DNA of 14,153 nucleotides from a virus. A program made the position numbers. Positions 6,001 to 9,000 of this stretch are shown in pieces. The stretch lies in UHGV virus genome UHGV-1658972; one strand, given 5' to 3'. The first letter of the stretch is position 1; each line of letters starts with the position of its first letter.

Positions 6001-9000
6001 CAACCAAAACGAATCGTCTGAACAGTCTACGGTTGTATCGTACCAGTTATCTATTGCACGCTTATGATATGGTTCTACAGCTTCCATCCAGCATCCTGCG
6101 CTCACCCAGCTAATCAGAGGGTATGACCCTCTTGGATCATGCCTACTGTGATAGGCAATGTTTGAAAGACTTTCCTCTCCTTTCATCAGATAGTCAGGGG
6201 AACACTTCAACGCATTAGCCAGGGCGAGAAGATTCTCTCCATTTGGCTCTGTCTCAGAGCGTTCCCACTGAGATATGGCAACATTAGACACGCCGACCAT
6301 CTTTCCAAGTGCGGCCTGCCTGATCTTGAGTTCTTTTCTCCGAGCGCGAATGCGCTCTCCCATCAATTGAGTTTTCATAGTTAAGACATCTTAAATAAAC
6401 TTGACTTAAGATTCCTTTAGTGGATAATTTAAGTGTTCTTTAATTTCGGAGCGAGTCTATGTACAAGAAAGATGTTATCGACCACTTCGGAACCCAGCGT
6501 GCTGTAGCTAAAGCGTTAGGCATTAGCGACGCAGCAGTCTCTCAGTGGAAGGAAGTCATCCCAGAGAAAGACGCCTATCGACTGGAAGTCGTTACAGCTG
6601 GCGCCCTGAAGTATCAAGAAAGCGCTTACCGCAAAGCGGCATAAGCAAATTGCTCTTTAACAGTCATGGTCCTCATTCCCGCCGAAATGCGGGAATACAA
6701 CGCGCATAAGTTGATGCGCATAACTTCTTATTTGTTAAGGAAATACTTACATATGGTTCGTGCAAACAAACGCAACGAGGCTCTACGAATCGAGAGTGCG
6801 TTGCTTAACAAAATCGCAATGCTTGGAACTGAGAAGACAGCGGAAGCTGTGGGAGTTGATAAGTCGCAGATCAGCAGGTGGAAGAGGGACTGGATTCCAA
6901 AGTTCTCAATGCTGCTTGCTGTTCTTGAATGGGGTGTCGTCGACGACGACATGGCTCGATTGGCACGACAAGTTGCTTCGATTCTCACCAATAAAAAACG
7001 CCCGGCGGCAACCGAGCGTTCTGATCAAATACAAATGGAATTTTAACAACATCCAACGAGGTAATTATATGCGAAACAAAGGCTTTAATCCACCTGATAC
7101 ACACAAAGAAGCTAAGCGTTTGCGCTTCCTTCGTTCCATTGATGAAAGAACTCAAATCTCTTTTGTGAAAGTTGCCAGAACTGAGTTTCTGAAGGCTGAG
7201 GCGAGGGCGTTGCTCCCGTCTCTACCAAAAGAGGAGGGATATACGTTCATTCCAAACGCATTTCTGGAAAAGCTTCTCAAAGAAGACATATCCGTAAGTC
7301 AGTTTAACGATGTTCTTAAGGTCTTTCGTCAAGGCAGGTAGTTATGAGCAATACAGCAAAAATCTACGATTTCAGCGCCGCACACGAGCGCAGGAGCAAC
7401 AGGATGGAGAACCAGAAAACTGGTTACATTCCGTTGTACCGGAGCATTCTGAAACAGTCATGGGCGAAAGATGTTTATCTTCGCACCCTGTGGGAAAACC
7501 TTCTCCTGAATGCCGCCAGAAAGCCATACAAAGCGAATTTCAAAGGTCATGAATGGCATCTGCAACCCGGTCAACTGGTTGTGACAGCAGCTGATTTAGG
7601 TCTTCAGTTATGCGACAGGCATGGCAAGCCAGCAAGCCGTGATCAGGTTGAGCGGATGCTTCAGGTTTTTGTGAAAGAGGGGATGATTTCCATTGATGGA
7701 GAGAAGCAAAAAGGGCGTGTGATCACCATCACAAATTACCATGAATACGCTCAAAAAATGGACAATTCACCCGCACATGAAGCCGCACAAACAACCGCAC
7801 ATGATGCCGCACATGATGAAGCCAGTAATGGCGCGGCTTTCAGCGTACATGCCACACATGAAAGCGCACATGAAGCCGCACAAACAACCGCACATCATGA
7901 ACAAGAAGGTATTAACAAGAATATAAATAATACCCCCCTACCCCCCAATGGGGGAGGCGATGGGCAGGTTAAACCTGAACGTCGCAAGGCAGAACGAATC
8001 GACTACGAATCCTTCCTGAACGCCTACAACACCGAAGTCGGTGACAGACTGCCACACGCTGTTGCGGTCAACGAGAAACGCAAACGCCGCCTGAAGAAAA
8101 TCATCCCGCAACTGAAAACGCCAAATGTGGACGGTTTCAGAGCGTATGTCAGGGCGTTTGTGCATCAGGCCAAGCCGTTTTACTTCGGAGACAACGACAC
8201 GGGCTGGACGGCTGATTTTGATTACCTGCTGAGGGAAGACTCGTTAACGGGAGTTCGGGAAGGGAAGTTTGCAGACAGGGGGATTGCATGAGACAGGATA
8301 TCGAAGCGAGCGTTATCGGTGGCCTGCTGATTGGTGGATTAACTCCAACCGCCAGTGACGTTCTGGCAACGCTTGAGCCGGAAGCGTTTTCAATTCCGCT
8401 CTACCGGAAAGCCTTCGAAGTTATCCGGAAGCAGGCGCGAAACAGAAACCTAATCGACGCGTTGATGGTTGCCGAGGCGTGCGGAGAGGAGCATTTCACG
8501 TCAATCCTGATGACCAGCAAAAACTGCCCGAGCGCCGCAAACCTGAAGGGATATGCCGGAATGGTCGCGGATAACTATCACCGCCGTCTGGTGCTGGAAA
8601 TCATGGATGAAATGCGTGAACCAATTCAGAGCGGAACCATCGACGCATCGAGTCAGGCGATGGATGAACTGGTAAAACGTCTTTCAGCCATCAGAAAGCC
8701 CCGTGACGAGGTTAAACCTGTACGGTTAGGGGAAATCATAACTGACTACACTGACACGCTTGACAGGCGTCTGAGGAACGGAGAAGAGTCAGATACCCTG
8801 AAGACCGGAATCGAAGAACTTGACGCCATCACCGGAGGGATGAACGCGGAAGACCTGGTGATTATCGCTGCTCGTCCTGGTATGGGGAAAGCAATGGCGC
8901 TAAGCGAAGGGATTTTACTTGCAGATGGCACCTGGACTACTCACGGAGAAGTCAAAATTGGCGATCGCATCGCGTCAATAGACGGGCTTCCTTCGGAGGT

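Follow-up and report, generated by a model that had tools for sequence, protein, structure and literature searches.

Among the closest described systems, phage lambda has four iterons of about 20 base pairs (bp), and P22 has four different repeats of about the same length (PMC8022706). In lambda, origin binding has been reported for the N-terminal 162 residues of the initiator O (PMC2629481), and the complex of O with the iterons, the O-some, unwinds an AT-rich tract (PMC7466680). Phage L has a putative origin in gene 18 with ‘six imprecise repeats of 11 bp’, TGTCCAACGGA (PMC8022706; annotated in MW013503), which is itself a prediction backed only by the genetics cited in that paper. The locus described here lies in the virus genome UHGV-1658972, of which the whole stretch analysed, 14,153 bp, is called the window. 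Positions 7771-7954, inside the gene of an O-like replication initiator, are very probably the replication origin of this phage. An original prediction, made from the sequence alone, had placed an origin within this gene, and it is supported by the position of the segment, its right arm, selection at the level of the DNA and the specificity of the N-terminal domain of the initiator. The parts of the gene are as follows.

7344..8291, plus strand: O-like replication initiator gene, 315 amino acids, with the candidate origin inside it (open reading frame, translation, Pfam, PHROG)
7344..7763, plus strand: region coding for the N-terminal domain, amino acids 1-140, a predicted winged helix-turn-helix and presumed reader of the iterons (AlphaFold2)
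7771..7818, plus strand: iteron block A, four 12-bp direct repeats with the core CCGCACAT (repeat finding, comparison with relatives)
7819..7851, plus strand: spacer of 33 bp, AAGCCAGTAATGGCGCGGCTTTCAGCGTACATG
7852..7899, plus strand: iteron block B, four 12-bp direct repeats (repeat finding, comparison with relatives)
7900..7932, plus strand: AT-rich, purine-skewed block, presumed DNA-unwinding element (duplex stability, invariance)
7911..8291, plus strand: region coding for the C-terminal domain, amino acids 190-315, of the HK97/P22 type and matched to the helicase (identity, cluster linkage)
7933..7954, plus strand: direct repeat of C runs followed by an inverted repeat, a right arm of the P22/HK97 type (comparison with P22, HK97 and relatives)

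The repeat array, which encodes amino acids 143-186, sits between the N-terminal Phage_rep_O domain (amino acids 20-132) and the C-terminal domain (amino acids 190-315). Tandem Repeats Finder places two arrays of period 12, with the consensus CCGCACATGAAG, at 7771-7816 and 7855-7895, and reading them in register yields the eight 12-bp repeats, in two blocks of four, that had been predicted. The units of block A are CCGCACATGAAG, CCGCACAAACAA, CCGCACATGATG and CCGCACATGATG, and those of block B are CCACACATGAAA, GCGCACATGAAG, CCGCACAAACAA and CCGCACATCATG. Two units have CAA in place of CAT, and one has CCACACAT, where most close relatives read CCGCACAT. Seven of the nine plus-strand CGCACA hexamers of the 14-kb window fall in the array, on a grid of 12 nucleotides (nt) within each block, and the self-match at period 12 peaks at 7771 with 27/36, a value that compares with 22 at most in 200 shuffles. 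The exact duplication within the array, first given as 27 bp, is in fact 31 bp long (7772-7802 = 7865-7895), and the translation of the iterons is the His- and Ala-rich linker SPAHEAAQTTAHDAAHDEASNGAAFSVHATHESAHEAAQTTAHHEQEGINKNINNTPLPPNGGG, as claimed. No inverted repeat was found within the units, in which only CATG is self-complementary, so that the dyad of about 18-20 bp that marks the lambda/P22 subtype of iteron is absent. At 7844-7851, 8 nt ahead of block B and off the 12-nt register, there is an extra core-like GCGTACAT, which is GCGCACAT in many close relatives.

Several database entries are altered at the array. The O gene of an E. coli LZYWN_4 prophage (NZ_CP046416.1; L126, 730-960) has an in-frame tandem duplication of 93 bp that gives 4+5+4 units, and this is the product expected of unequal crossing-over at the exact 31-bp repeat. 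Many database copies of the O protein (P0001-P0012) are labelled ‘partial’ and end at 151-208 amino acids, many of them inside the repeats. The 5,555-bp Salmonella ‘plasmid’ NZ_CP148879.1 (L128) begins exactly at the origin and carries only the 5′ part of O together with cII, cro and cI. The partial proteins and this entry suggest that assemblies break at the repeat array. As a natural mini-replicon, NZ_CP148879.1 was rejected, since it lacks the helicase and all but the 5′ part of O; with a start at the origin, the record has the look of an assembly artefact. Matches to 36.7-kb Salmonella ‘plasmids’, which are presumed to be whole phage genomes, were uninformative.

The predicted AT-rich stretch after the repeats is the least stable 30-bp duplex in the window. 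The block, AACAAGAAGGTATTAACAAGAATATAAATAATA, is 33 bp long with 18% G+C, and the 30-bp segment from 7903 has the lowest stability of all 14,153 bp (-30.9 kcal/mol), compared with a mean of -42.9 kcal/mol (standard deviation 3.1) for 30-bp duplexes within the O gene. It contains two copies of AACAAGAA; lambda and P22 have two copies of ACAAAAGA. The C/G element that follows was also present as predicted, but it ends at 7954, 4 nt beyond the proposed end at 7950. Its sequence is CCCCCCTACCCCCCAATGGGGG, in which the inverted repeat CCCCC-(C)AAT-GGGGG occupies 7941-7954. The sequence ACAAAAGACAATATACAAAAGACAATAAATACAAATA CCCCCTTACCCCCTAA(A/C)GGGGG, in the arrangement found at 7900-7954, stands both in the annotated rep_origin of P22 (NC_002371, 32840-32984) and at the corresponding place in HK97.

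Relatives were collected with the N-terminal domain alignment as query, and comprised 80 viral contigs and 36 loci, each from a different bacterial species of the Enterobacterales. The diverged relatives compared, about 45 from the 36 bacterial species and phages, have N-terminal domains that are 43-87% identical. All intact homologs examined carry repeats, the absence of which had been named in advance as the outcome that would count against an origin. In every intact gene with the CCGCACAT or CCGCGCAT core there are two blocks of three or four units in one constant reading frame, and the order of block, 33-bp gap, block, AT-rich block and inverted repeat is kept in all intact relatives. The number of units is the same in both blocks, 3+3 or 4+4, in 30/30 intact loci with these cores. 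The AT-rich block of relatives is built on GAACAAGAAGGTAnTAACAAGAATA and again stands after the second block and before the inverted repeat. Two loci (L008 and L039) have no second block, and in both the reading frame is interrupted. The spacer is 33 bp long in 27/27 representative loci, which cover six repeat types of the family and phage L, and its first 20 nt or so, starting with AAnCCAGTAATGGCGCGGCTT, are conserved among them. The core, as read from 190 units of 30 loci, is C-C-G-C-(A/G)-C-A-T, followed by four variable positions.

Near-identical viral contigs (79 contigs, 54 haplotypes) are all 4+4. Polymorphic columns among the 54 haplotypes amount to 8/56 in the cores, 15/32 in the unit tails, 15/33 in the spacer, which is thus polymorphic despite its fixed length, and 0/34 in the AT-rich block. 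These data bear on whether the array is a neutral, unstable tandem repeat without any role under selection, the product of slippage and unequal crossing-over. The exact 31-bp duplication, the 93-bp tandem duplication of one E. coli prophage and the many protein copies truncated here, as is typical of assemblies that break at repeats, are all features that such a repeat would have. Since unit counts are fixed (3+3 or 4+4 in the 30 intact loci, 4+4 in all 79 close relatives), the gap is always 33 bp, and the cores are kept across genera as the unit tails drift, a neutral array is excluded and has next to no probability. Four or more separate branches of the N-domain tree have 4+4 units (L006-L033 and the window), and unit tails frequently match pairwise between the two blocks. 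Equal block sizes, 4+4 on several branches and paired tails together suggest gene conversion between the blocks or selection for paired sites.

The repeats might instead be a feature of the peptide alone, a flexible or metal-binding linker rich in His and Ala that arose by in-frame tandem duplication, in DNA with no function of its own. A period of 12 is divisible by 3, which keeps all units in one frame, the linker does have the His- and Ala-rich composition, and the repeats lie between two folded domains. Synonymous positions, however, are nearly invariant in the units and free elsewhere in the same genes. The Ala codon is GCA in 131/132 units with the A core, compared with 21% of Ala codons elsewhere in these genes, and GCG in 40/41 units with the G core (CCGCGCAT), compared with 15% elsewhere; the His codon is CAT in 162/165 cases, compared with 58%. 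Replacing GCA by GCG leaves the protein unchanged, yet all units of a locus make this switch together. Furthermore, other branches of the family hold the same DNA layout with unrelated repeats (CCGATGAACCA, GAGGTAACAAA, GTCGAAGG..., CCGATACAC), and the encoded peptides are wholly different between repeat types (AHEAAQTT, PDEPCDKP, VEGSDEPP). In phage L and in the Sakai prophage Sp5 the period is 11, so their units cannot encode a peptide repeat at all. Because of the codon data and the period of 11 in these relatives, a purely peptide repeat is excluded, and what chance it retains is very slight. By these comparisons, selection is on the DNA of the repeats and not on the peptide that it encodes.

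The two ends of the initiator have different affinities. In a tblastn search, amino acids 190-315 had 97% identity with HK97 gp54 and 60% with P22 gp18. At the other end, Klebsiella phage initiators match amino acids 3-195 with 76% identity, and the initiator of a Yersinia phage matches amino acids 3-143 with 74%; in Klebsiella phage Mulock and in this Yersinia phage the partner is of the lambda P type. When N-terminal domains, C-terminal domains and downstream genes were clustered, the repeat type followed the N-terminal domain, with CCGCACAT found together with four different C-domain clusters and the HK97/P22-type C domain together with six different repeat types. Each C-domain cluster has a constant partner gene, which is of the lambda P type in 28/28 loci and a helicase of the P22 gp12 type in 6/6 loci. 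The C-domain cluster of the window is the one with the P22 gp12-type helicase (6/6 loci).

The right arm varies together with the C domain. Relatives paired with lambda P have the right arm of lambda, TCGTC(C)GAGAATTCTG(A/G)CGAATCC, and other C-domain types have their own inverted repeats in the same place, TCTAATAAT-AA-ATTATTAGA, AGTCAAC-TTGC-GTTGACT and ATCTCTTACT-GA-AGTAAGAGAT. The inverted repeats of two loci (L037 and L040), CCCAC/GTGGG and CCCGC/GCGGG, differ by a compensatory pair that alters two amino acids, and those of two others (L022 and L034) likewise differ by a compensatory change. In relatives the perfect stem averages 6.0 bp beside the AT-rich block, as compared with 4.0 bp in control windows. 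The DNA breakpoint relative to HK97-type genes lies inside the AT-rich block, at about 7917. As clustered here, iteron specificity is inherited with the N-terminal domain, and the right arm with the C-terminal domain and its partner.

Another possible use of the sites is a different binding function, for example in titration or copy control, in excluding related phages, or as targets of a regulator encoded elsewhere; alternatively, the AT-rich stretch could be mainly a recombination junction, with the origin in another place. A module breakpoint with HK97-type genes within the AT-rich block would suit a junction, extra lambda iterons borne on a plasmid could titrate O and so inhibit replication (PMC3349717), and the number of iterons varies through unequal crossing-over. 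These explanations are nevertheless improbable, since the repeat type goes with the N-terminal domain of O while upstream genes differ between loci, the window has no other repeat array beside a comparably unstable stretch, and the right arm matches the annotated origin of P22. Titration and initiation are not mutually exclusive in lambda, and a further binding function would most likely coexist with that of an origin.

The N-terminal domain was modelled with AlphaFold2 (mean predicted local distance difference test, pLDDT, 74; 82-93 over amino acids 81-130). The elements follow one another as helix 44-59, three strands, helix 82-88, helix 99-111 and a β-hairpin at 115-129. The top Foldseek matches are the winged-helix DNA binders CRP, MarR, CodY and RosR, with probabilities of 0.8-1.0; a search of the sequences of solved structures gave no match. 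The start of helix 99-111, the predicted recognition helix, varies with the repeat type, as SRD, SRH, SPQ, SAK/SPK or SKQ. The only alignment columns that separate loci with the A core (CCGCACAT) from those with the G core (CCGCGCAT) are A82S and D100H. The G-core loci form nearly one clade in the N-domain tree, and a nested A-core locus (L023) has A82 and D100.

Taken together, the segment has the features of lambdoid origins embedded in O, namely a position within the gene, iterons on the promoter-proximal side, an AT-rich block, an inverted repeat and modular inheritance, and it also has those of the two-block, short-repeat layout of the phage L type, in block sizes, the 33-bp spacer with its CCAGTAATGnCGCGGCT and an initiator related to gp18. 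By analogy with lambda, the winged-helix domain of the O-like protein would bind the eight 12-bp units in their two arrays, and the resulting nucleoprotein assembly would strain and open the adjoining AT-rich block at 7900-7932. The C-terminal domain would then bring the DnaB-type helicase of the phage to the opened DNA, a role suggested by the linkage of the C domain with its partner gene, and the inverted repeat at 7933-7954 would be the right edge of the origin. Given direct repeats with no dyad symmetry, the protomers would be expected to bind in tandem, head-to-tail, and not as dimers in the manner of lambda. Tandem binding is the more likely arrangement compared with dimers on palindromes, but it is the least certain point of the scheme.

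Some observations weigh against an origin that works in this way. Since the units do not have the dyad symmetry of the lambda and P22 iterons, the binding mode of lambda is not simply transferable. The structure model of the N-terminal domain is of medium confidence, with weak E-values for the fold matches, and the covariation between residues and bases represents one or two events only, because the G-core loci are nearly a single clade. The hairpin energy of the C/G element alone is unremarkable (z = -1.4 to -2.1), so the case for this element rests on the comparison with relatives. The segment matches 122 phage records, and in none of them does an origin feature lie under the match; no binding, unwinding or replication assay of this type of O was found in searchable papers. 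A literature search with the repeat sequence returned unrelated primers only. In the literature on CUS-3, HK620, Sf6, VT2-Sa and HK97 no specific description of an origin was found; Miyamoto 1999 (VT2-Sa) and King 2007 (CUS-3) could contain one.

The spacer may be a site for a host factor, a second contact of the initiator or a peptide motif (SNGAA). A broader and distinctly tentative proposal is that the two-block array with its invariant 33-bp spacer represents a second origin architecture among lambdoid phages, which would include phage L and Sp5. Its initiator, bound as head-to-tail protomers, would span both blocks, perhaps with a host factor at the spacer between them, in contrast to lambda, in which dimers of O bind four palindromic iterons.

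The window as a whole comes from a lambdoid, P22-like phage or prophage, of which it is the early region, and it contains these other genes.

5728-6378, minus strand: CI-type repressor gene
6459-6644: cro
6666-7046: cII
8288..10681, plus strand: DnaB-type replicative helicase gene, 797 amino acids, with an intein inside it (Pfam DnaB, DnaB_C, LAGLIDADG, Hint)

The best overall matches to the window are phages CUS-3, Gally, Kapi1 and JEP4. Phage_rep_O of Pfam spans amino acids 20-132 of the initiator (E=3.4e-15), and each half of the protein matches PHROG 345, ‘replication initiation O-like’. Genes of CUS-3, JEP4 and Gally that are named O or replication protein share 98-99% identity with the O gene, and 48 records of Stx2a-converting phages have an unannotated match, again at 98-99%. 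Of 5,426 complete E. coli genomes, 272 have a full-length copy of the gene. A search of 6900-8400 gave no sigma-70-like promoter, and no DnaA box (TTWTNCACA) was found anywhere in the 14,153-bp window, a result that was counted as neutral. On the minus strand, at 6995-7022, there is a strong terminator-like hairpin of 12 pairs with a T run, which overlaps the 3′ end of cII from the opposite strand and has the same position as the oop terminator of lambda and P22.

The helicase gene is split by the intein, at about 8891-9910, in the Walker A loop (...ARPGMGK | AMALSEG...YIVTHN | TELALK); the homolog of CUS-3, which has no intein, is 458 amino acids long. The intein matches LAGLIDADG homing-endonuclease and Hint families; its first residue is Ala, and it ends in THN, followed by Thr. 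We take these ends to resemble those of class 3 inteins, for example the DnaB intein of mycobacteriophage Bethlehem. Intein DNA with at least 99% identity occurs in 51 phage records, and 48 of these are Stx2a-converting phages.

For phage biology in general, an origin at this place is an expected result; the main interest lies in the invariant 33-bp spacer, the equal blocks and what they imply for binding by the initiator. The likely start of replication is placed on a 184-bp segment of common E. coli and Salmonella phages, both P22-like and Stx2a-converting, and the repeat sequence, as the presumed binding site, is marked as an origin in no database record searched. If the segment is the origin, synonymous recoding of the cores should abolish it, and the D100H/A82S exchange should retarget O from CCGCACAT to CCGCGCAT. 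Family-wide rules, namely the 33-bp spacer, equal blocks and an inverted repeat after the AT-rich block, would help in the annotation of prophage origins.

In lambda, as in the window, the origin is inside the linker of the initiator gene, with iterons, AT-rich block and inverted repeat in that order, and the AT-rich block is purine-skewed with two copies of an ACAA(A)AGA-like sequence. The iterons differ, however, in that lambda has four units of 18-19 bp with dyad symmetry (ATCCCTCAAAACGAGGGA), in contrast to the eight 12-bp direct repeats in two blocks found here. Lambda O matches the O-like initiator weakly (BLASTP, best E=0.004), and the partner is the P loader in lambda and a DnaB-type helicase in the window. 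P22 (gene 18) and HK97 (gene O) have the module of the window in their AT-rich block, CCCCC...CCCCC...GGGGG element, C domain and helicase partner. The iterons and N-terminal domain of P22, on the other hand, are unrelated, with four units of about 20 bp built on TCGGTAAAAC (PMC8022706).

Plasmid iteron origins, those of RepA, π and TrfA, also have head-to-tail repeats, a winged-helix initiator and an adjoining AT-rich unwinding element. Their iterons are usually about 17-22 bp long and lie outside the rep gene, together with DnaA boxes. In the window, by contrast, there is no DnaA box and the repeats are inside the gene. The Shiga-toxin (Stx) phages 933W and P27 also change their number of iterons through in-frame duplications that lengthen O, but they have six palindromic iterons of the lambda type, to which a lambda-like O binds (PMC7466680).

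The Sakai Stx2 prophage Sp5 has been assigned to the replication type ‘Eru3’, which was called non-lambdoid (PMC8044961). Its O gene (L127, 1960-2140; NC_002695, about 1259013-1259193) is of the phage L type and again has two blocks, each of three 11-bp units and separated by 33 bp, with units built on TTACCAGCA; an AT-rich block and TCTCTAATAC-TGAC-GTATTAGAGA follow. The spacer of Sp5, counted by eye, is thus also 33 bp long, with a more diverged sequence. From its layout, the ‘Eru3’ module of Sp5 looks like a lambdoid origin embedded in O. Assignment of the window itself to ‘Eru3’ was rejected, since Sp5 has a phage-L-type O gene with a different repeat.

The original prediction had likened the layout to that of lambda. 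The order of iterons, AT-rich block and inverted repeat bears this out, but dyad iterons of the lambda type are not present, and since the units are direct repeats the closest layout is that of phage L. Phage L has three units, a 33-bp spacer that closely resembles the one here in sequence and has CCAGTAATG(A/G)CGCGGCT (CCAGTAATGACGCGGCT), three units, an AT-rich block and an inverted repeat with a 10-bp stem. Its gp18 is a distant relative of the O-like initiator (22% identity over the full length, BLASTP E=4e-10). It differs from the window in its period of 11 instead of 12, in its core, in having 3+3 and not 4+4 units, and in its inverted repeat and C-terminal/helicase type. Because phage L has the same two-block layout, this kind of origin is already known, and what is new here is the sequence of the repeat and the arrangement of 4+4 units.

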